Origin: Negativicutes bacterium
GTDB taxonomy: Bacteria; Bacillota; Negativicutes; UBA1444
DNA length: 29,706 nt
Direction of reading: 5' to 3'
Assembly (NCBI GenBank): GCA_035560855.1
Contig: DATMYT010000568.1
Span: forward strand, 1-29,706
In this document: one piece after another, positions 1-27,579 of the stretch
Layout of the letters: every line of letters begins with the position of its first letter
How positions within the stretch are numbered: the first letter of the stretch is position 1
Notes under the pieces: model-generated
The model's database searches: none
What the model saw: only the letters and a program-made list of their open reading frames with translations
Told to the model about the DNA's origin: nothing
Program-made: the position numbers and the translations under genes

Positions 1-104
1 AATTTTACCTGTCTGTCAATAGCTTTTAACGAAATTGTTAGACTAGTTCTTTTATTCAAATAGAAGTCGTGTGGCGGCCCTATAAGGTCCAATATTTCAC
101 AAAC

Positions 105-145
105 AAAAAAAGGTTGCGCCGAACTTCATAGTTTCGACACAACCT
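105..145 (-). terminator. Intrinsic terminator after yabN
   Basis: Minus strand AGGTTGTGTCGAA...TTCGGCGCAACCT stem (with G-U pairs) followed by a T run, about 55 nt after the yabN stop. Confidence 0.75.
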
Positions 146-199
146 CAACGCCAAAATCAGTTTTTATAAAATTAACCGGTAATAATCCGCACTATTATC

Positions 200-1660
200 T
201 TATTTTTTCTCCGTCGCCTTGGCCGCTTCCCACATTTCATCCATCGCTGTTAGATCAAGATTCTTCCATTTCAGCCCCTTCGCACGGACCGAAGTCTCCA
301 CTTGTTGAAAACGCCGGATGAACTTGTTGTTGGTTCCGTTCAGCGCTACTTCCGCCTCGATGCCTAGAAAACGCCCCAGATTAACTACGGCAAATATGAC
401 ATCACCAAGTTCATCTTCGATTTTCACCTTGTCTCCGCTTGTTTCCGCTTCCCGCAACTCATCCAGCTCTTCGGCTACCTTTGCCCATACGGGAGCAATG
501 TCGTCCCAATCGAATCCAACTTTAGCCGCTTTCAGCTGCAATTTATTCGCCCGTAACAGCGCCGGCAACCCTTTGGGAACGCCGTCAAGCGCCGACTGCG
601 GCTTGACCGTCTTTTCACGCCTTTTGATCGCATCCCAGTTCACGATGACTTCGGCCGCATCACGAACCGAGATATCGCCAAACACGTGAGGATGACGCCG
701 GATTAGTTTTTCTGTCACCGTGTCCACGACATTCTGCATACTGAAGTCACCGTTTTCTTCTGCCATGCGGGCATGAAAAACGATCTGCAGCAACAAGTCA
801 CCGAGTTCCTCGCACAAATGGGCCGGATCCTTTTCGTCGATGGCTTCCAACACTTCGTAGACTTCTTCGATAATATAGCGGCGCAGGGTGGCATGACTCT
901 GCTCGATGTCCCACGGGCAACCATCCGGCGAACGTAATCGAGCCATGACATCTACCACCGGGTCTAGAGAAAAAGTATTCTGGCGGGGTGAGCCATGCGG
1001 TACATATACGCTGGTCAAATGATCAAACCCGCTCTGTCGGTCCAGTTCAAAAAGCGGCACGCTTTCCACCGATTCGTCAGGCAAGCCCAGATGTCTGGCA
1101 ACAATGACCGGCGCTTCATCCTGCAATCGTTCCATCAAGCTTAGTTTTAATTCGGATGCAATGAATGGGCTAAACACTTGCGTGATAACAAGTCCAGTCG
1201 GCAAATCTGATGGTAACGTCTCGATTTCCTGCGCATCCACGATCGTCATCCCCTGCTGCGGATCAACGCCCAATCGGTTGCAAAGCAATTCAAAAAAGCT
1301 CATCCCTGGTAAAACTCTCACAGGAACCTGCTCCTCCTGTGCCTTGATGCGAATCAACCCCACCGTTTTTTCAGCAACCATCGGGCTGCCGGGCACCGCA
1401 AAGACAACGCTCTGCCCTTGTTGGGCCCGTTTCAAAACATCGGCGGCAATCGCCGCATAAATAGAATCGAAATCAGTTCCTTGTTCATATAAGGCATCAT
1501 AACTTTCAAATACAACCCCGCGCGCCTGCAATTCTCCAACGGTTGGATGAATGGCGGTACGCAATAGCAGCGTCGACGCTTGCCTCACAATATCCCAGGT
1601 TTCCAGACTCATGCAGCCGAACGGTCCCGGTCCCAAGCCAACAATCGTAATACTTCCCAT
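200..1660 (-). CDS. yabN: Bifunctional tetrapyrrole-methylase-like / MazG nucleoside triphosphate pyrophosphohydrolase (YabN family), 486 aa
   Basis: N-terminal GSITIVGLGPG and FAVPGSPMVAE (methylase-like domain); RLRSPDGCPWD, EEVYEV...EELGDLLLQ and a second EELDE...ELGDVIF MazG repeat; conserved position after mfd-yabM. Confidence 0.93.
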   Translation of the reverse strand: MGSITIVGLGPGPFGCMSLETWDIVRQASTLLLRTAIHPTVGELQARGVVFESYDALYEQGTDFDSIYAAIAADVLKRAQQGQSVVFAVPGSPMVAEKTVGLIRIKAQEEQVPVRVLPGMSFFELLCNRLGVDPQQGMTIVDAQEIETLPSDLPTGLVITQVFSPFIASELKLSLMERLQDEAPVIVARHLGLPDESVESVPLFELDRQSGFDHLTSVYVPHGSPRQNTFSLDPVVDVMARLRSPDGCPWDIEQSHATLRRYIIEEVYEVLEAIDEKDPAHLCEELGDLLLQIVFHARMAEENGDFSMQNVVDTVTEKLIRRHPHVFGDISVRDAAEVIVNWDAIKRREKTVKPQSALDGVPKGLPALLRANKLQLKAAKVGFDWDDIAPVWAKVAEELDELREAETSGDKVKIEDELGDVIFAVVNLGRFLGIEAEVALNGTNNKFIRRFQQVETSVRAKGLKWKNLDLTAMDEMWEAAKATEKK

Positions 1661-17949: not shown

Positions 17950-18795
17950 TTATACTTTTGGAATATTTCTGCCTGAGAAGATCTCATTCATTTCTTTTTT
18001 CAACCTCTGCTTTATTTTTTTCTTTTCAGCAGTGATTAGCTCCTTCTTGGCGGTGCCAAACAAATAATTGTCGAGATCAAATTCCTTCAGCAGCATCTTC
18101 GTGTGGAAAATATTATCCTGGTAAACATTCACATCTACCATCTGATACAAATCCCGTGTTTCCCGGGAAATATAATTTTGGATCGAATTAATCTTGTGGT
18201 CAATAAACAGTTTTTTGCCATTAATATCGCGCGTGAATCCGCGCACCCGATAGTCAATGACTACCATATCCGAACTAAAACTGTTGATCAAATAATTCAA
18301 GGCAGTTAACGGTGAAATTCGGCCGCAAGTCGACACATCAATATCCGCGCGGAAAGTGCTGATGCCTTGATCCGGATGACTCTCCGGATAGGTGTGGACA
18401 GTGATGTGACTTTTGTCGAGATGCGCCACTATCGCATCGGTCTTCTTCTTTTTCACTTTTTTCTTCGGCTCATCTTCATCGATAATTTCCGGCGTCTCTG
18501 CCGCCAAAGCCTCTGATGCTTCCTTGTCCTCTGCAATCAGCATTGTTACGCTCGAACCCTGTGGTTCATAATCCTGTTGGGCAATATTGAGGATGTTGGC
18601 GCCGATGATCTTTGCCACTTCAGTGAGGATCCCGGTCAATCGCTCAGCATTATACTCTTCATCAATATAGTCGATGTACGCCTGCCGGTGTTGGGGCGTT
18701 TTGGCGTAACAAATATCGTACATGTTGAAACTCAGTGATTTGGTCAGGTTATTAAAACCATATAACTGAAGTTTCTTGATTCTTTTGACCTTCAT
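17950..18795 (-). CDS. speD: S-adenosylmethionine decarboxylase proenzyme, long E. coli-like form, 281 aa (start moved to ATG 18795)
   Basis: [35 protein letters not shown] (pyruvoyl-forming K/S cleavage), [16 protein letters not shown]; GGGGA SD. Confidence 0.95.
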
Positions 18796-18836
18796 GCGCT
18801 TCCCCCTTATTCCATCCGGCATTCTTTTCTACACAA

Positions 18837-18918: not shown

Positions 18919-19635
18919 TTACAGCCCGCTTTCGCGCCAACAAAAATATACACCAAGCAACCCGTGACCCAAGGACACGCTGACACTTTGCGAACCTTCC
19001 GCCAACCGATTGCAAATTCCACCAGGATGCTTCATCGTCAATGTTGCTTCCTGCAACGGCCAATGCACACCCTGGCTGTTCACATTGTCACATACTGCAG
19101 ACAAGGGCATCAACGACACAGCAATCGGACTCTGCGTCAACTCCGCTCGAAACGCTTGGCCGCCTTCAACTAAAAACAGTGCTTCCGCTTCATCAACCAA
19201 TCCAATCGCATGAACGTCCCACAGCTTTGATTCCTGCAAACTGAACACATTGGAGTAAGCATGATCAAAACGCCGCCCCATACCGCCCGTCAGCAACGCC
19301 GATGCGTCGGGATGTCGGCCCCCAAGTTCCTGCAATGTCAGTTGAAGATCCGTCAAATCCTTGTCAATGGAGTGCCGCACTATCGGAACATGGTGAGACT
19401 CGGCCCATTGCCACGCTTCGACTGCTCCGCTGTCTGCATCACCGACCAGAATTTCCGGAATCACCGCCGCAGATCGGCACACGTCTATACCACGATCAAT
19501 CGCCCACACCGGGTAGCGCTGAGCCACCTGCTTCAACCACTTTTCATTCGGTGGTCGCCCTCCGGCAACCAATATCACAGGATCAGACGACTCCGAGGCG
19601 AGAAAAAAGCACCCCTGCGGCAACTCTATTTTCAT
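18919..19635 (-). CDS. thiN: Thiamine pyrophosphokinase, 238 aa
   Basis: AIDRG, LVGDADS, DKDLTD, RFDH, C-terminal GVHWPL...ICN thiamine-binding domain; GGAGG SD. Confidence 0.88.
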   Translation of the reverse strand: MKIELPQGCFFLASESSDPVILVAGGRPPNEKWLKQVAQRYPVWAIDRGIDVCRSAAVIPEILVGDADSGAVEAWQWAESHHVPIVRHSIDKDLTDLQLTLQELGGRHPDASALLTGGMGRRFDHAYSNVFSLQESKLWDVHAIGLVDEAEALFLVEGGQAFRAELTQSPIAVSLMPLSAVCDNVNSQGVHWPLQEATLTMKHPGGICNRLAEGSQSVSVSLGHGLLGVYFCWRESGL

Positions 19636-19650
19636 GCAGTCAGCCTCCGT

Positions 19651-21585
19651 TCAAGCATTTGGAGTCTCTTGCCCATCCAGGTCCTCCAATGCGGCGCCGA
19701 GTTGTTCCCAAGTCCGGTAAACTTCTTCCAACGCCGACTTCACCCGTTCGTATTCTTCGCCCAACTTGCAGCTTTGAGCTGGATCTGCATGTGAAGCCGG
19801 ATCATTGATTCTGCATTCCAACTGCGCCAAAGCAGCTTCCATTTCACTGATTTCTTTTTCCGCCCGATTCATTTGACGCATACAATCCTGTCGACGTTTG
19901 AGTGGGGAAGTGTTTTTTCTTTCCGTCCGCTCCATTTTTTTAGCTTTGGGCTGCGCCACCGCGTCAGCTGGCGCAACGCTCTCCGTTGCCAAGGCGCACG
20001 CAGCCTTGTATTCGCTATAATTCCCGGGATAGGACAATAGTTTTCCCGCCTCAAACACAAGAACACGATCGGCAATCCTGTCGATTAAATACCGATCATG
20101 CGACACCAGCAAAATTGAACCGGGAAAAGCGTCCATTGCTTCTTCAACGGCTTCCCGCGCCGGGATATCCAAGTGGTTGGTCGGCTCATCCATGACCAAA
20201 AAATTGGCCCCGGACAAAATAATCTTCAATAAGGCAAGGCGGGCTTTTTCGCCGCCAGACAAATCTCCAACCACCTTGAACACGTCGTCGCCCCGAAACA
20301 TAAACCGTCCCAATACCTTGCGGGCCCGTTCCTCCGTCAGAGCGCACTGATACACCAACTCATCAATCACCCGCAGCGAATCGTTCAGTTCTTCAAACTC
20401 CTGGGCATAGTATCCCATACGAGCACGCGGGCTGTTCTTCACGCGCCCCCGCATCGGCTGCATTTCCCCCAGTAAAAGACGCAGCGCGGTGGTCTTACCT
20501 GCGCCATTTGGTCCAAGCAAAGCCACTTTTTCGCCGCCACGCAATAAAAATGAAATATTTTCAAATACGCACGTTTCTCCATACCCTGCAGAAACCTCAA
20601 TAAACTCAGCCATCCGTTCCGGAACTTCATCACAGTCCGGAAAGAAAAACTGCATCGCTTCTCGAATTTCCGGTCGCTCCAGCCGCTCCAGCCGATTCAG
20701 CTGCGACTCCCGTCCTCTGGCCTGTTTTGATTTGATTCCTGCCTTGTACCGGCGGATATACTCCTCCGTCTCGGCGATTTTCTCCTGTTGTTGTTCATAG
20801 GCAGCCAGCACTGCTTCGAGACGATCTGTCTTTTGCGCTACATAGCCAGAATAACCTGCAGAATAATCCTCAAGTGAACAGTTCTCCAATTCCAGTGTCC
20901 GGCGCGTCACCGCATCCAGAAAATACCGATCATGTGAAATAACCAGAACCGCGCCCGGATAATCCCTCAGGTACCCCTCAAGCCACTCGGTCCGCTCTAG
21001 ATCAAGGTGATTGGTAGGTTCGTCCAAAATGAGAAAATCGGGCTGCCGAACCAGTTCACGCGCCAAGGCAATCCGAGTTTTTTGACCACCGGAAAACTCT
21101 TCCACTTTCCGTGCCAACTCACTATCCGAGAATCCCAGGCCGATGCAAATCTGACGTATCCGGCTGTCCATCGAATAGCCGTCGGCATGTTCAAACCGGG
21201 CCATAACCTCAGAATATTCTTTCAGTAATTCGGCCTGAGCCCCGTCACTGTGGTCGGCAATCTTTTGTTCCAGCGTCCGCATGCGTTCTTCCAACGCGAG
21301 AACATCCTGATATGCCTGCTTCAGCTCCTCCATTACGGTTCGACCGCCGAAGTCGGCAGCCTGTTCCACATAGCCGATGGCACAGCCCCCATACCAGGTG
21401 ACCTGTCCCCCATCTGTGCACTCTTCCGCCAACAGGCAACGCAACAAAGTCGTTTTGCCGGCGCCATTCGGCCCCACCAACCCGACTTTCTCACCCCGCC
21501 GGATCTCGAATCCGACGCCGGAAAACAACGTCCGTTCTCCGAAATATTTGGCCAGTTCGGAAACTTTTAACAGTATCTCACTCAT
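19651..21585 (-). CDS. ABC-F family translation-associated ATPase (YdiF/Uup/YheS-like), 644 aa
   Basis: Two GPNGAGKTT Walker A motifs, FSGGQ and LSGGE signatures, two LDEPTNHLD-type Walker B regions, helical arm insert, inter-ABC linker, C-terminal coiled coil, no TM segments. Confidence 0.93.
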   Translation of the reverse strand: MSEILLKVSELAKYFGERTLFSGVGFEIRRGEKVGLVGPNGAGKTTLLRCLLAEECTDGGQVTWYGGCAIGYVEQAADFGGRTVMEELKQAYQDVLALEERMRTLEQKIADHSDGAQAELLKEYSEVMARFEHADGYSMDSRIRQICIGLGFSDSELARKVEEFSGGQKTRIALARELVRQPDFLILDEPTNHLDLERTEWLEGYLRDYPGAVLVISHDRYFLDAVTRRTLELENCSLEDYSAGYSGYVAQKTDRLEAVLAAYEQQQEKIAETEEYIRRYKAGIKSKQARGRESQLNRLERLERPEIREAMQFFFPDCDEVPERMAEFIEVSAGYGETCVFENISFLLRGGEKVALLGPNGAGKTTALRLLLGEMQPMRGRVKNSPRARMGYYAQEFEELNDSLRVIDELVYQCALTEERARKVLGRFMFRGDDVFKVVGDLSGGEKARLALLKIILSGANFLVMDEPTNHLDIPAREAVEEAMDAFPGSILLVSHDRYLIDRIADRVLVFEAGKLLSYPGNYSEYKAACALATESVAPADAVAQPKAKKMERTERKNTSPLKRRQDCMRQMNRAEKEISEMEAALAQLECRINDPASHADPAQSCKLGEEYERVKSALEEVYRTWEQLGAALEDLDGQETPNA

Positions 21586-21607
21586 ACTCTTGCCTTCTCA
21601 ATCCCAA

Positions 21608-22774
21608 TCAAAAATACTCGCTGATAAAATTACGGCAGACTGGAAAAATCTGCTCCAGAAAATTCAGTTCTTCTTCGTGGTAGATGCCGCTAGTTCCTGC
21701 CGCTAAAATCTCTCGCACCGGACGTTCACCAAATAGCAGATGACTCAGCGCAGCGATGTCTAGCGACACCCCGGCGTCATCAGCAGTTAATAGTGGGCTC
21801 AAAGCGCCTTTCCCCTGCCGGATGCTCCAATGAAAAGTCCCGTGGTTCCATGGCGCTAACGAATCTGTGATCGTCAAATTCGTTTCCACTGACAATTTGA
21901 TCGGATATTCCATCGCTTCCAGCACAGACTTGATATCCGTAATTCGCCCCATTAAAAATGGCTCAGGCCGGGAACCAGAATACAGAACAGATCCCGGATC
22001 ACCGGAAGGATCATCCCATTCCAGAACATCCACACCGCATCCCTGTTCAATCAGATACTTCCACGTGGTGTCCACTACCCCTGGGTCACGCCAGGCCATT
22101 TCACGCACTCGCAGTAATTTTTCACCGATATGATACAACACATACCCCTCGGGATTGCCTTCGCGGGAAATAACGCCAACCTTTCCTCCATCGCCTCGGT
22201 GATCGGCGAGCAATTTATCCCAATCCTTGCTTTCACGCAAAGCATACCCATGCCTCGACTGCACAAAGGCACCATACAATCCCTCTAACGGAGCCCTTGC
22301 CATTTCGTCAGGCGTCCATACCATCGCTGGCGAAACATCCTCCGGCAACATCAAGTTTGCCTCGATCATCGGCATACTGTACCTCTGTCTTGAATAACAA
22401 AAGTCCCAGCCCAGTTTACGATAAAACTCCGGCCACCTCGGCTGCAATATACTGATGCCGACACCCGTTCGCTTTAACTGTGCCAAGGCGCTCATCATTA
22501 CCGCTCGGCCGATCCCGGTTCCGCGCAAATTTTCTTCCACACAGACGCCTACAAAATAAACCGCATCCCGCCACGAGCCGCGCAACATCAGTCGATACGG
22601 CAATAAATGCGCCTGTGCCAAGACTTGCCCATTTTCCACCCCGACCCATGTTTGATCAGCACGGTAGTGCTTTGAGAAATACCAGCTCGTCCAGGGTTCT
22701 TCTTCCCCGAAAGCCTGGCCCCAGAGCCGCCGCACCGCCGTATATTCGTCTTCCCTGCTCAGGCGGAATTCCAT
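21608..22774 (-). CDS. Eis-like GNAT acetyltransferase with C-terminal SCP2-like domain, 388 aa
   Basis: GVCVEENLRGTGIG acetyl-CoA motif A, FYRKLGW, second GNAT repeat (NPEGYVLY), FMGRITD, LTITDSLAPWNHG, C-terminal SEYF typical of the Eis family. Confidence 0.88.
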   Translation of the reverse strand: MEFRLSREDEYTAVRRLWGQAFGEEEPWTSWYFSKHYRADQTWVGVENGQVLAQAHLLPYRLMLRGSWRDAVYFVGVCVEENLRGTGIGRAVMMSALAQLKRTGVGISILQPRWPEFYRKLGWDFCYSRQRYSMPMIEANLMLPEDVSPAMVWTPDEMARAPLEGLYGAFVQSRHGYALRESKDWDKLLADHRGDGGKVGVISREGNPEGYVLYHIGEKLLRVREMAWRDPGVVDTTWKYLIEQGCGVDVLEWDDPSGDPGSVLYSGSRPEPFLMGRITDIKSVLEAMEYPIKLSVETNLTITDSLAPWNHGTFHWSIRQGKGALSPLLTADDAGVSLDIAALSHLLFGERPVREILAAGTSGIYHEEELNFLEQIFPVCRNFISEYF

Positions 22775-22784
22775 CGTTTACTCC

Positions 22785-23672
22785 TCAGACGCCGTCGGCG
22801 CGATATTTTTCGACCATCCGAATCGGACGATACGACATCTTGGCTGCCCGCAGCCCGGGAATGCCCATGTCCTCTTCCCGGTTGACGAAAATCATGTGCG
22901 ACCAGTCATGTGTCAGATATTCCCGGTTTAACATCTGATATAACCCTACCACTTCCGGGTCCGCTTTTTCAATATGGATGACTGCCGTATCTTCGCTCAG
23001 AGCTTCGCCTACAGTAAATGCCCGAATTTTGTCATCGATCTTGATGAGCCCTCCACTTAGCTTCAACTCGGCAAAATGAGTCAGCGCCTGCTCTATTGCA
23101 AAGGTCTCCGCCTGTAAAATTGCATCGTCACTGTGCTGCCTCACCAGCCATTCCTTTGCGACAGGAATGCATTCCACCGCGTTGTCCGCATTCATGACTT
23201 CATAGGAAAAATCCGGTGTGTTCCTGAGAAACGTGCGAATATGATGCCGTTTGGCGTCAAATTTCCGCCCCTTGAGCTCAATCAGCTCTTTGACACTATA
23301 GATATAGTCATCTTCGCAACGGTCATGCTCGATTTTCCAGTCCGGAAAAGCGTCCATTAATAAATCCGCCAACGGTTTTTCCAAGCCACGGATTAATATC
23401 GGCTGCCCTTGTTTCCGAAACCAGTCGGCCAACATGCCTGCTGCCTCAACGGCGTCTTCGCTTTCACACGCACAGGGATGCAGCGCATACAAAGGCCCAT
23501 CGTTCCGTACAACAACACAGATAGCTTTTCCCGCCTGTGTCCAGACAATGTCCAATGGTTTTCGCCAGATATACAGATTGGTAAAGCTGCTTTCCGACCC
23601 CTGATGCTGACAACAGCGATACGCTTTATCAAAAATTGGCCTATCCTGTAAAGTGATTGGATGAAATTCCAT
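22785..23672 (-). CDS. Stand-alone DUF2156 protein (aminoacyl-PG synthase transferase-like tandem GNAT fold), 295 aa
   Basis: SFTNLYIW, DYIYSVKELIELKGRKF..KRHH, HIEKA, NREEDMGIPGLRAAKMSYRP; no membrane domain; GGGAG SD. Confidence 0.88.
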   Translation of the reverse strand: MEFHPITLQDRPIFDKAYRCCQHQGSESSFTNLYIWRKPLDIVWTQAGKAICVVVRNDGPLYALHPCACESEDAVEAAGMLADWFRKQGQPILIRGLEKPLADLLMDAFPDWKIEHDRCEDDYIYSVKELIELKGRKFDAKRHHIRTFLRNTPDFSYEVMNADNAVECIPVAKEWLVRQHSDDAILQAETFAIEQALTHFAELKLSGGLIKIDDKIRAFTVGEALSEDTAVIHIEKADPEVVGLYQMLNREYLTHDWSHMIFVNREEDMGIPGLRAAKMSYRPIRMVEKYRADGV

Positions 23673-23711
23673 GTTGAATACACTCCCACGTTTGGTTCCC
23701 TGCCATTTTTC

Positions 23712-24866
23712 TCATGGTCGAAAGGTAACCTTTATTTCCACTATTTCCGAGGCGGCGCTAGTGCGAACCGGCGGCCCCCATGTGCCAAAACCTGCGGAAA
23801 CGATCACATTCATTGCCCCTTTACGCATATATCCCCAATCCGTCTCATAGAGCGACCGCGTCACCCATTGATTGGGGAAAAGTTGGCCTCGATGAGTATG
23901 GCCGGACATCATCAGATCCACTCCCGCCGCTGCAGCTTCCTCCATGCTTCGGGGTTGATGATCCATCATCAGCAGAGGTTTCGTTCTATCAACGCCTTCC
24001 AGAAATTCGCTTAATGGCTTGCGCGGACTATTCATAAAACGCACCCGGTCCCAGTCGTCACGACCAGCTAACACAAACTGATCTCCCACATTAAAAACGG
24101 AATCGCGCAAAACCATGATCCCGCTACTGCGTAACAATTCCACCGCCACATCAGTCTGCCCACCAATGTATTCATGATTTCCGAGTACTGCAAAAACGCC
24201 GAACCGAGACTTCAGTCGCCGAAAGGTCGCTGCCATCCCTTGATTAACAAAAGGTCCGACATCCTCGTCAATCACGTCACCCGCCAATAAAACCAGATCA
24301 GGGCGCCGGGCATTGATTTCATCAACCAGCTTCTCCAAGCGTCCATTTTTGATGACCTTCCCCAGATGGATATCTGTCACCAGAATGATATGTAGTTCAC
24401 GCAGATCCCCAGCGGATTTGTCAATCGAAATATCATAGTGTCGCCAGACGGTATTCGTTGCATTCCATACGCCAAAAGCGATGATCACTGTGACCATCGC
24501 CACCACAATTCCTCCGGCAACAGCCGGAGCCTGTCGCCATGTCTCCGGAACGAACGACAGTCGTCTGTCTGCAAAGCGAATCAAATCGATGAAGGCGCAA
24601 AACAACACCAAGTAGTACAGAATCGCCAGCCAAGTTCCACCGACGAGCGACAACGCATTGGTTATAAAGTTTGGAAGATAGTTTCCCAAAATTCTCTCAA
24701 AGATATACGAAAACGATATCAGAAAGAACAATAGAGAATAAAAACGGCCGCCAGGGAAGGCAGGCAACGCATGGAACGCCTGCCACCCCCGGAGACCTAC
24801 ATAGTAGTTGCCCATTGAATATACGATAAGAATGATCCCAAAAAAAGCAATAAATTGTACGTTCAT
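23712..24866 (-). CDS. Membrane-anchored calcineurin-like metallophosphoesterase (YkuE/YaeI-like), 384 aa
   Basis: About four N-terminal hydrophobic segments, then TDIH, GDVID, GNHE, DHQP, SGHTHRGQ. Confidence 0.9.
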   Translation of the reverse strand: MNVQFIAFFGIILIVYSMGNYYVGLRGWQAFHALPAFPGGRFYSLLFFLISFSYIFERILGNYLPNFITNALSLVGGTWLAILYYLVLFCAFIDLIRFADRRLSFVPETWRQAPAVAGGIVVAMVTVIIAFGVWNATNTVWRHYDISIDKSAGDLRELHIILVTDIHLGKVIKNGRLEKLVDEINARRPDLVLLAGDVIDEDVGPFVNQGMAATFRRLKSRFGVFAVLGNHEYIGGQTDVAVELLRSSGIMVLRDSVFNVGDQFVLAGRDDWDRVRFMNSPRKPLSEFLEGVDRTKPLLMMDHQPRSMEEAAAAGVDLMMSGHTHRGQLFPNQWVTRSLYETDWGYMRKGAMNVIVSAGFGTWGPPVRTSAASEIVEIKVTFRP

Positions 24867-24873
24867 GAATATT

Positions 24874-24882
24874 ATTGTATCA
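24874..24882 (-). promoter_or_regulatory. Extended -10 element placed for a leaderless transcript
   Basis: TG-A-TACAAT ending 7 nt before ATG 24866; no SD upstream. Confidence 0.6.
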
Positions 24883-24900
24883 CAGGAACGCCGCTAGCGG

Positions 24901-27579
24901 CTACTTTGTCCCGGTCGCGCCCTCTGCTCCCACAACATTGGCCTGTGCCGCAGCCAGCCGTGCAACCGGCACCCTGAATGGCGAACAGCTGACAAAATCA
25001 AGTCCAATCTGATGACAGAACTCGACGGAATTCGGTTCGCCTCCGTGCTCGCCACAAATCCCAATCAACAGATTGGGTTTTGCCGTCCGTCCCGCTTCCA
25101 CGGTCATCCGCATCAACTGGCCGACGCCACGGCGATCTAAGATGATAAACGGATCATCTTTGAGAATTCTGCCTTCCAGATATGCATCCATGAACTTTCC
25201 TTCGGCATCGTCCCGGCTAAATCCAAACGTTGTCTGTGTCAAGTCGTTGGTACCGAAACTAAAGAAATCGGAGATTTCGGCCAGTTCGCCAGCCAGCAGG
25301 GCAGCCCGAGGCATTTCAATCATGGAGCCTACGGAATATTCGAAGTGCACTTTTTCCTTGATCATGATTTCCTTAGCCATTGCGTCAATACGGGTTTTGA
25401 AGAAATCCATCTCTTTGAAATCGATTGTCAGTGGAATTTCGACTTCCGGCAAGACATGAACGCCTTCTTTTGTTAATTTCACACAGGCATTGAATATCGC
25501 CCGAACCTGCATGTCATAAACATCGGGATGAGTGATGCCGAGGCGGCAGCCCCGGTGCCCAAGCATCGGGTTGAATTCGTGCAGTTCGCGGATTTTTGAC
25601 AAAAGAACTTCCTGCTCTGCCAATCGCTCCGGGTCTTTGCCAGTAATGCGAAGCTCGACAGTCTCTACCAGCACCGATTCATAGTTGGGTAAAAATTCAT
25701 GCAGGGGAGGATCCAGCAAGCGAACGGTAACCGGTAGTCCGTGCATGGCTTTCAGAATCCCATAGAAGTCGGATTCCTGCATCTTCTGGAGATGGGACAA
25801 AGGCTCTACCCTTTCTTCCTGGCTATCGGCCAAAATCATTCGTTGCACGTACGGCAACCGATCTGCTCCCATGAACATATGCTCTGTTCGGGTCAAACCG
25901 ATCCCCTGTGCACCAAAGGAACGGGCAAGTTTGGCGTCTTCCGGCGTATCGGCATTAGCGCGCACTTTCATGCGAGACAAGCTGTCGGCCCACTTTAGAA
26001 CTTGGTCATATTCCTTCGAGAACATTGCATCCACAACCGGTACAGCGCCCAGGATTACCCGGCCGGTGCTGCCGTCGAGCGACAAAATGTCGCCGGCTTT
26101 GATGACGTGACCTGCAACGGTAGCGGTCTGAGTTTCATAATCGATGCGTAGCGCATCACAGCCACAGACGCAGGGTTTGCCCATACCGCGCGCAACCACT
26201 GCAGCGTGGCTAGTCATGCCGCCGCGGCTGGTCAGGATGCCCTGAGCCGCCACCATGCCGTGAATATCCTCCGGTGTGGTTTCCATACGAACCAGCAGCG
26301 TTTTAATTCCTTCAGTCGCTTTTTTCGCCGCCGTATTGGCATCGAACACCACAGCGCCAGAGGCAGCGCCCGGTGAAGCCGGCAGGCCTTTGGCAATGAC
26401 ATCCAATTTCGCCTTCGGATCAATCTGACGATGCATCAATTGCTCAATGTGGGCAGGTTCTACTTTCATAATGGCTTCCGCCGGAGTCAGGATGTTTTCC
26501 TGCACCAGATCATACGCAACCTGTACAGCGGCGCGACCGGTACGTTTCCCGTTACGGGTCTGCAGCATATAGAGACGGCCACGCTCGATCGTAAACTCAA
26601 TATCCTGCATATCCTTATAGTGGTGTTCCAACGTGTCGGCAGCTTGCACAAATTGCTTGTACATTTCCGGCATCTGGTCCTTGAGTTCGGAAATGGGACG
26701 CGGTGTGCGGATACCGGCCACCACATCTTCGCCCTGAGCATTGGTAAGAAATTCACCGTACAGCAATTTTTCGCCGGTAGACGGATTCCGTGTAAATGCA
26801 ACGCCAGTGCCGCAATCATCGCCCATGTTACCAAATACCATCGACTGAATATTGACTGCAGTCCCAAGATCATGGGAAATGCGATTCAGATTACGATACA
26901 CAATCGCCCGCTCGTTGTTCCACGAACGGAAAACGGCTTCCACCGACATGAACAACTGTTCCATTGGATCTTGTGGAAATGGACGCCCTGATTGGTCCGT
27001 CACCAGTTTTTTATAGTCGGAGACCAATGCCGCAAGCGACTCTGCCGTCAATTCCTGATCAAACTTTACACCCTGCATTTCCTTGCGTTTCGTCAGTAAC
27101 TCTTCAAAAGCATGTTTGTGAATTTCCAGCACCACATCGCCAAACATCTGAATAAAGCGACGGTAAGCATCAAAGGCAAATCGTCGGTTTGCCGTGGCGG
27201 CTGCCATTCCTTCCACAGTGACATCATTCAGGCCGAGGTTCAGAATAGTATCCATCATTCCAGGCATCGAAAAAATTGCGCCGGAGCGAACAGAGATCAA
27301 CAAAGGATTTGTAGCATCGCCAAATTTTTTTCCGGCCTTCTGTTCAGTTACTTTCAAGCAGGCTTTGATTTGGTCGGCTAATCCTTCCGGAAAATGATTC
27401 CCAACTTTATAATATTGTCGACACACTTCCGTCGTGATAGTCATGCCCGGAGGTACCGGCAATCCGATTCGGGTCATTTCCGCCAGACCTGCTCCCTTGC
27501 CGCCGAGCAGCGAACGCATGTTGGCGCGTCCCTCTTCAAACAGATATACCATTTTCCCCTGGTTTTCCGCTTTGTCCAT
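24901..27579 (-). CDS. ppdK: Pyruvate, phosphate dikinase, 892 aa
   Basis: LGGKGAGLAEM, SVRSGA..SMPGMMDT, QGEDVVAGIRTP, GGMTSHAAVVARG (phospho-His), NPMLGHRGCR, GICGEHGG; GGGGGG SD. Confidence 0.98.
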   Translation of the reverse strand: MDKAENQGKMVYLFEEGRANMRSLLGGKGAGLAEMTRIGLPVPPGMTITTEVCRQYYKVGNHFPEGLADQIKACLKVTEQKAGKKFGDATNPLLISVRSGAIFSMPGMMDTILNLGLNDVTVEGMAAATANRRFAFDAYRRFIQMFGDVVLEIHKHAFEELLTKRKEMQGVKFDQELTAESLAALVSDYKKLVTDQSGRPFPQDPMEQLFMSVEAVFRSWNNERAIVYRNLNRISHDLGTAVNIQSMVFGNMGDDCGTGVAFTRNPSTGEKLLYGEFLTNAQGEDVVAGIRTPRPISELKDQMPEMYKQFVQAADTLEHHYKDMQDIEFTIERGRLYMLQTRNGKRTGRAAVQVAYDLVQENILTPAEAIMKVEPAHIEQLMHRQIDPKAKLDVIAKGLPASPGAASGAVVFDANTAAKKATEGIKTLLVRMETTPEDIHGMVAAQGILTSRGGMTSHAAVVARGMGKPCVCGCDALRIDYETQTATVAGHVIKAGDILSLDGSTGRVILGAVPVVDAMFSKEYDQVLKWADSLSRMKVRANADTPEDAKLARSFGAQGIGLTRTEHMFMGADRLPYVQRMILADSQEERVEPLSHLQKMQESDFYGILKAMHGLPVTVRLLDPPLHEFLPNYESVLVETVELRITGKDPERLAEQEVLLSKIRELHEFNPMLGHRGCRLGITHPDVYDMQVRAIFNACVKLTKEGVHVLPEVEIPLTIDFKEMDFFKTRIDAMAKEIMIKEKVHFEYSVGSMIEMPRAALLAGELAEISDFFSFGTNDLTQTTFGFSRDDAEGKFMDAYLEGRILKDDPFIILDRRGVGQLMRMTVEAGRTAKPNLLIGICGEHGGEPNSVEFCHQIGLDFVSCSPFRVPVARLAAAQANVVGAEGATGTK

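Follow-up and report, generated by a model that had tools for sequence, protein, structure and literature searches.

A conserved and sometimes fused gene pair of DUF2156 protein and Eis-type acetyltransferase in anaerobic bacteria, tentatively read as an acyl-transfer module

The window analysed here is a contig of 29,706 nucleotides (nt) from a Negativicutes bacterium (GenBank assembly GCA_035560855.1, contig DATMYT010000568.1). On its minus strand, a gene for a soluble protein of the DUF2156 family (PF09924) directly precedes a gene for an Eis-type acetyltransferase of the GNAT superfamily. Do the two proteins work together, and if so, which donor does the DUF2156 protein use? The initial annotation had proposed that the DUF2156 protein moves an amino acid from aminoacyl-tRNA (aa-tRNA) to an acceptor, whose new amine the acetyltransferase then caps. 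The source assembly has 713 contigs and a completeness of 90%, and its nearest named relatives are Veillonellaceae/Negativicutes. The elements of the locus are as follows.

22785–23672, minus strand: DUF2156 (LPG_synthase_C) gene of the BT_3689 (2HQY) subfamily, encoding a tandem GNAT of 295 amino acids (aa), ATG start
21608–22774, minus strand: Eis-type three-domain acetyltransferase gene, 388 aa, ATG start
22775–22784, minus strand: intergenic spacer of 10 nt, carrying the Shine–Dalgarno sequence of the acetyltransferase gene
22781–22784, minus strand: Shine–Dalgarno sequence GGAG of the acetyltransferase gene, 6 nt before its ATG
23683–23687, minus strand: Shine–Dalgarno sequence GGGAG of the DUF2156 gene, 10 nt before its ATG

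Both open reading frames (ORFs), their 10-nt spacing, their Pfam matches and a Shine–Dalgarno sequence for each gene were found as initially annotated. The DUF2156 protein also lacked a membrane domain, as had been stated: the highest Kyte–Doolittle means over 19 residues were 0.85 and 1.12 in the two proteins, and no membrane-like segment was present in either. The DUF2156 ORF of 295 aa sits in an open frame of 308 aa. The GGAG of the acetyltransferase gene abuts the TGA stop codon of the DUF2156 gene directly, a geometry that suggests translational coupling. A promoter and terminator scan of the window performed no better than on shuffled sequences and defined no transcription unit.

Conservation, fusion and co-inheritance of the pair

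The Eis-like gene lay directly downstream of the DUF2156 gene in all 12 orthologous loci from the same genus and family (70–82% identical). Five of 17 more distant loci of the same class were also paired, with DUF2156 proteins about 40% and GNATs about 30% identical to those of the window. An evenly drawn sample of the phylum comprised 301 genomes, of which 69 carried a free-standing DUF2156 homologue and 42 an Eis-like gene. When the coordinates of both gene searches were compared by eye, the Eis-like gene was immediately downstream on the same strand in 28 of the 69 DUF2156-positive genomes, which represented 13 families. Seen from the other side, 28 of the 42 genomes with any Eis-like match had it beside DUF2156.

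Twenty paired loci from the phylum sample were fetched for ORF comparison. The gene order was always DUF2156 followed by GNAT, often with overlapping stop and start codons, and the junctions ranged from a 32-nt overlap to a gap of about 100 nt (98 nt in the fetched loci). Several of the fetched pairs were flanked by divergent or convergent genes. In an all-against-all clustering of the ORFs in 21 loci, only these two genes recurred across lineages, and no third conserved gene was found beyond family-level synteny. Ten same-strand neighbours had unrelated functions according to Pfam (Hsp70-like, carbonic anhydrase, FakA, HlyD-like, pseudouridine synthase, M14 peptidase, DinB, spore permease and MPG among them).

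Eighty named loci were taken from one-genome-per-species contigs, about 72 of them with enough downstream sequence; 36 were paired and one was fused, giving 37 of the approximately 72 assessable loci. Paired genes occurred in Veillonella parvula, V. fallax, Megasphaera hexanoica, M. hutchinsoni, Acidaminococcus, Phascolarctobacterium, Caldicoprobacter oshimai, Intestinibacter bartlettii, Paraclostridium bifermentans and Christensenella. They also occurred in metagenome-assembled genomes (MAGs) of Oscillospiraceae and Lachnospiraceae, and in some labelled Paludibacteraceae and Acholeplasmataceae. The pair is kept together, and sometimes fused, in gut and oral anaerobes. DUF2156 was found alone in Selenomonas, Mitsuokella, Helicobacter and several lineages of Clostridia.

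On a DUF2156 tree of 90 rows, the pairing trait required about 13 changes. This tree was enriched for pairs (19 rows had been fetched as paired), and its proportion of 53/90 is not a frequency. Many sub-groupings of the GNAT tree reappeared in the DUF2156 tree, a pattern that inheritance and transfer of the cassette as one unit would produce. Several contigs with unexpected labels were nested among Bacillota sequences: L100 (Acholeplasmataceae), L062 (Patescibacteria group), L128 (Paludibacteraceae) and L081, L107, L110 and L125–L127 (Helicobacter). L100 was sister to an Acidaminococcaceae sequence in both trees. Such contigs point either to horizontal transfer of both cassette genes together or to mis-binning in MAGs.

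The two proteins also occur as a single polypeptide. A contig labelled Alistipes (L131, 1971–3356, plus strand) encodes a protein of 461 aa in which PF09924 (residues 25–294) is followed by Acetyltransf_9 (residues 301–415). An exhaustive profile search of 1.84 billion representative sequences returned 3806 DUF2156 family members with E-values under 1e-30. Of the 150 best-scoring of these 3806, five were fusions, all with the domains in gene order: two complete DUF2156–Eis fusions (P0180, 694 aa; P0192, 701 aa) and three fusions of DUF2156 to Acetyltransf_9 (P0221, P0276 and P0308). The fusions were 461–701 aa long, with linkers of only about 6–25 residues between the Pfam domains. They were not seen in a homologue search with the Eis-type protein, which reaches close relatives only. 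The frequent adjacency or fusion of stand-alone PF09924 proteins with Eis-type GNATs that the initial annotation had looked to for support is clearly present.

The acetyltransferases beside DUF2156 form a group of their own. In a tree built from 72 Eis-like proteins, the 53 partners were separate from a well-supported clade that held 18 of the 19 proteins encoded away from DUF2156. Where a genome carried both kinds of Eis-like gene, the copies fell in the two different groups. Two related genomes had a second, free-type Eis-like gene of 415 aa about 3 kb from the pair and on the opposite strand (L049, 697–1944, plus strand; L050, 33–1280, plus strand).

Conservation, coupling, fusion and the partner-specific GNAT group together indicate a strong functional link between the two genes, and we consider it very probable that both enzymes act on one pathway or substrate.

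Properties of the two proteins

The DUF2156 protein matched PF09924 over nearly the whole profile (E 4.1e-49; 167.7 bits against a cut-off of 27.5; profile positions 4–297 of 298). Its closest relative of known structure by sequence was 2HQY, the Bacteroides thetaiotaomicron protein BT_3689 (E 1.7e-40, residues 3–292). An AlphaFold2 model (pLDDT 94) consisted of two GNAT halves joined by a helix at residues 136–151, and 2HQY was also its best structural match in Foldseek (TM 0.93, rmsd 2.0 Å). The next matches were the catalytic domains of MprF (TM 0.60–0.69, 11–16% identity), followed further down by acetyl-CoA (CoA, coenzyme A) tandem GNATs, FemX and the tRNA-dependent Sba18/Sbb17. A family profile searched against the PDB sequences matched 2HQY alone (E 1.2e-99) and did not reach the MprF structures; the relation to MprF emerged only from the fold search and from profile–profile comparison.

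In a profile comparison with the MprF C-terminal domains (hhalign, with an MprF alignment of only five sequences), the match had a probability of 81% at 18% identity. Shared residues were limited to the G-K-R of the helix, one Trp and the motif GLRxxKxx[YF]xP, the last corresponding to GLRxFKxKFxPxW in MprF. The MprF motif DLMR aligned to IHIEK, so that the D..R invariant in MprF corresponds to H..K. The Tyr of GLRxAKxSY (Y281), where MprF has Phe, was considered as an indicator of CoA chemistry and was dropped since some MprF sequences have Tyr as well.

Two features were conserved throughout the family. The segment at residues 133–151 had a net charge of +3 to +9 in all 90 homologues, in proteins that are otherwise acidic (median pI 5.5). 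About 35 positions were at least 90% conserved and clustered in motifs of the second GNAT half (H233, E235, K236, N264–D268, K278, Y281), a cluster that looks like an active site; G243 and N249 were likewise invariant in the family. The Helicobacter homologues were 35–38% identical to the window protein. HP0935, at first guessed to be the DUF2156 gene of Helicobacter pylori, proved to be an unrelated, small single-domain GNAT.

The source genome contained only two PF09924 frames, both of about 300 aa, and no PF09924 frame of MprF length was found in this 90% complete assembly. The second frame is a free-standing paralogue, 40% identical to the window protein, on another contig (L001; G000 contig C234, 1350–2255, minus strand). 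It lacks a GNAT partner and is followed, after 2 nt, by a DUF520 (YajQ-like) gene (853–1347, minus strand) and then by an HD-domain gene (69–839, minus strand). Paralogues of this type are common across the class, and relatives in the genus carry both paralogues. Two genomes of one family (G065 and G115) encode a full-length MprF (frame of 849–911 aa) alongside the paired cassette, and the cassette therefore does not replace MprF.

The partner protein had the complete Eis architecture in Pfam: Acetyltransf_9 (PF13527, E 1.9e-22, residues 3–125), Acetyltransf_17 (PF17668, residues 176–278) and SCP2_2 (PF13530, residues 282–382). Its best match in the PDB was 3n7z (E 1.3e-25), and 2i00, 2ozg and the Eis structures 3sxn/6rft were matched as well. 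It retained the motif R84-G-T-G-I-G89, the conserved Tyr118 in an iLmPxxxxfY motif and an aromatic last residue; the last residue was F, Y or W in most of 40 full-length partner GNATs. In Eis, a motif that binds the pyrophosphate of acetyl-CoA (R/Q-x-x-G-x-G/A), a catalytic Tyr and the free carboxylate of an aromatic last residue serve acetyl-CoA binding and catalysis, and the corresponding residues of the partner, with its RGxGxG motif, presumably have the same roles. Judged by these motifs, the partner looks catalytically active. It is no Eis orthologue by the NCBIfam equivalog NF002368 (45.9 bits against a cut-off of 576). Some unfused partner GNATs are short (243–330 aa) and retain only the N-terminal, acetyl-CoA-binding Acetyltransf_9 domain.

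Acyl donor and competing explanations

The only experimental data on the DUF2156 subfamily concern 2HQY and its H. pylori counterpart. 2HQY is listed with the ligand COA among structural-genomics entries in which the other holders of CoA are genuine CoA proteins (PMC2954221), and it has been described with acetyl-CoA in the active site (PMC10700544). Deletion of hpb8_1270 in H. pylori partly lowers the acetylation of RNase J at K323, K397, K511 and K649 (PMC10700544). By analogy, the ligand and the acetylation phenotype point to an acyl-CoA donor for the DUF2156 protein. Since no other experimental data exist for the subfamily, we gave them more weight than what could be deduced from relatives at 15% identity.

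We therefore tentatively favour dual CoA-dependent acyl or acetyl transfer onto a common amine-bearing target over aminoacylation followed by acetylation, and regard it as the most plausible single reading, if not as a probable one. The two genes would constitute a dedicated, co-inherited two-enzyme module for acyl transfer, made as a single polypeptide in some lineages, with both enzymes cytoplasmic and directed at a shared target that bears an amine. The DUF2156 partner, of the BT_3689/HPB8_1270 subfamily, would be an acyl-CoA-dependent N-acyltransferase that has kept the ancestral GNAT site for CoA and does not use aa-tRNA. The Eis-type partner would be an acetyltransferase that uses acetyl-CoA and has its catalytic machinery intact. 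The shared substrate would thus receive two acyl or acetyl groups, at different sites or in successive steps. The CoA donor is carried over from published work on 2HQY and H. pylori, and the shared substrate is likewise a supposition, for which protein lysines or a polyamine-like small molecule are candidates.

Several points weigh against this module of two CoA-dependent enzymes. Every PF09924 enzyme that has been assayed uses aa-tRNA, namely MprF and other aminoacyl-phosphatidylglycerol synthases (aaPGS), ErdS, ErgS and VlmA/Ady7 (PMC8913301, PMC7334510, PMC9379638, PMC6103681). A strongly positive helix between the GNAT halves has been described as a hallmark common to aa-tRNA transferases (PMC6103681), and a basic helix at this place is conserved on acidic proteins in all 90 homologues. 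The MprF catalytic domains are the closest solved structures after 2HQY. The drop in acetylation in H. pylori is partial and possibly indirect, and no in vitro assay of a BT_3689-type protein was found in the literature. Two acetyl-CoA enzymes on one substrate also explain a tight pair or a fusion less obviously than two different reactions in succession. Finally, the gene context pointed to no substrate, either in the 21 clustered loci or among the ten neighbours assigned by Pfam.

The strongest alternative is the tRNA-dependent pathway of the initial annotation, which we consider possible but distinctly less likely. Here the DUF2156 protein would move an aminoacyl group from aa-tRNA to a lipid, envelope or small-molecule acceptor, and the Eis-type enzyme would N-acetylate the new alpha-amine. 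Capping would stabilise a labile ester and remove a charge, giving an N-acetyl-aminoacyl product (ester or amide). Membership in PF09924 argues for this pathway, as do the free-standing aa-tRNA transferases ErgS (PMC8913301) and VlmA/Ady7 (PMC9379638), the rank of the fold next to the MprF C-terminal domains and the basic inter-domain helix (PMC6103681). Tight coupling and fusion would suit successive steps with a labile intermediate, and the SCP2-like domain of the partner could conceivably bind a lipid. A precedent is N-succinyl-lysyl-phosphatidylglycerol, an N-acylated aminoacyl lipid without a known enzyme (PMC6103681).

Several findings speak against a tRNA-dependent step. The subfamily data favour CoA, through the ligand of 2HQY and the H. 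pylori phenotype (PMC2954221, PMC10700544). The similarity to MprF is remote, and in the alignment its invariant D..R corresponds to H..K. Nearly half of the DUF2156 family works without a GNAT partner, the source genome shows no MprF, and no aminoacyl-tRNA synthetase paralogue, flippase or hydrolase was linked to the pair in the 21 clustered loci or among the ten neighbours. Of the aminoacylate-then-acetylate proposal, the functional link between the two genes has held up through pairing and fusions; its aa-tRNA step leans on distant MprF relatives only, while the closest subfamily points to CoA.

We consider it improbable that one partner is non-catalytic. In the likeliest form of this explanation, the DUF2156 protein would belong to a hetero-oligomeric acetyltransferase in which it presents the substrate, regulates the enzyme or serves as a scaffold, much like the GNAT halves without activity in Eis, MshD and other tandem enzymes. 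In its favour, a tandem GNAT often contains a half without catalytic function, the two genes are coupled in translation and occur fused, and the short partners hold just the catalytic Acetyltransf_9 domain. The roughly 35 highly conserved DUF2156 positions, however, resemble an active site. In addition, DUF2156 thrives unpaired, for instance in Helicobacter and Selenomonas, and so has a role independent of the GNAT. When the two window proteins were co-folded, the score was 0.00; the proteins were folded without alignments, and the result counts neither for nor against binding.

That the genes are mere neighbours with unrelated functions is scarcely credible: about half of the DUF2156 family members lack the partner, but order and strand are the same in 13 families with unrelated flanks, stop and start codons overlap, fusions arose independently and the GNATs form a partner-specific group. 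A toxin–antitoxin system, with the GNAT as a toxin that acetylates aa-tRNA, was rejected because of size, architecture and the absence of a small antitoxin. The probability left by the two pathways, the non-catalytic partner and mere neighbourhood covers other explanations.

The surroundings of the pair are conserved over short distances only. In the window (18919–27579, minus strand), the order is PPDK, metallophosphoesterase, DUF2156, Eis-like and ABC-F genes, followed by TPK. The metallophosphoesterase, ABC-F, TPK and PPDK genes accompany the pair only within the genus and family, and the order from PPDK to ABC-F is therefore local synteny and not a conserved system. Three genes downstream of the pair and on the same strand (17950–18822), the window encodes an S-adenosylmethionine decarboxylase of the Escherichia coli type (TIGR03331, E 4.6e-138). 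The observation of a polyamine-synthesis gene near two putative amine acyltransferases covers this window alone.

Significance and comparison with known systems

Both enzyme superfamilies are well known, but a module of a BT_3689-type tandem GNAT and an Eis-type enzyme is without a described function, and the pair was not described in the literature that we found mentioning DUF2156. The DUF2156 family is widespread (the 3806 representatives above), and the pair occurs in cultivable and partly genetically tractable human commensals. The natural single-chain fusions are convenient constructs for biochemistry or structural work.

The donor decides whether a large branch of a Pfam family known for aminoacyl-tRNA transferases uses CoA thioesters. 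If CoA is the donor, the widespread annotation as 'phosphatidylglycerol lysyltransferase domain-containing protein' would be corrected. If the tRNA-dependent pathway were true, which we doubt, the pair would carry out a new tRNA-dependent modification with acetyl capping, a two-step pathway that none has described. Abundant commensals (Veillonella, Megasphaera, Acidaminococcus, Peptostreptococcaceae) would then, with the same doubt, contain a new class of N-acetyl-aminoacyl compounds. Under either outcome, the Eis-like enzymes of anaerobes would be placed in a physiological setting other than aminoglycoside resistance.

The initial annotation placed the established DUF2156 domains in fusions to a flippase or a synthetase, a picture that is out of date: free-standing ErgS (PMC8913301) and VlmA/Ady7 (PMC9379638) have been characterised, and show that the PF09924 family can use lipid or small-molecule acceptors. 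The fungal ergosteryl-glycine synthase ErgS and the actinobacterial VlmA/Ady7 resemble the window protein as soluble PF09924 proteins without a fused flippase or synthetase. They differ in lineage and context (sterol metabolism; azoxy clusters with VlmH/B/O), and an Eis-type partner has not been reported for them.

The closest relatives are BT_3689 of B. thetaiotaomicron (2HQY) and HPB8_1270 of H. pylori, which belong to the same subfamily of free-standing PF09924 proteins of about 300 aa. No reaction has been defined for either of them: 2HQY is an unpublished entry from structural genomics that contains bound CoA, and HPB8_1270 is known only by the effect of its deletion on RNase J acetylation (PMC10700544). 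A further difference is that the DUF2156 genes of Helicobacter have no GNAT partner.

The synthase domains of MprF and other aaPGS (4V34–4V36, 5VRV, 6LV0, 7DUW) share with the window protein the Pfam family, the tandem-GNAT fold, the basic helix between the halves and the motif GLRxxKxx[YF]xP. They are only 11–18% identical to it, and MprF has an N-terminal membrane/flippase domain that the window protein lacks. The DLMR and LGxAPL motifs, invariant in MprF, appear to be replaced in the window protein, which is acidic and not basic.

The window acetyltransferase shares three domains, the acetyl-CoA motif, the Tyr and the aromatic C-terminus with Eis of mycobacteria and its homologues in Bacillus anthracis, Enterococcus and Anabaena (3SXN, 6RFT, 3N7Z, 2I00, 2OZG). 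Eis enzymes are hexamers and acetylate amines at multiple sites. The window protein scores far below the Eis equivalog cut-off, however, the DUF2156-linked GNATs stand apart from free Eis-like genes, and some of them have lost the SCP2 and central domains.

Two further systems offer analogies for the competing pathways. In mycothiol biosynthesis, MshC and MshD carry out an aminoacylation followed by N-acetylation by a tandem GNAT, the sequence of events expected of a tRNA-dependent pair. Fused AAC(3)/AAC(6') resistance enzymes, two acetyl-CoA enzymes acting on one substrate, are the corresponding analogy for two CoA-dependent transfers. Both systems differ from the pair in that the sequence relation is limited to the GNAT fold, and MshC is a CysRS-like ligase and not a PF09924 protein.

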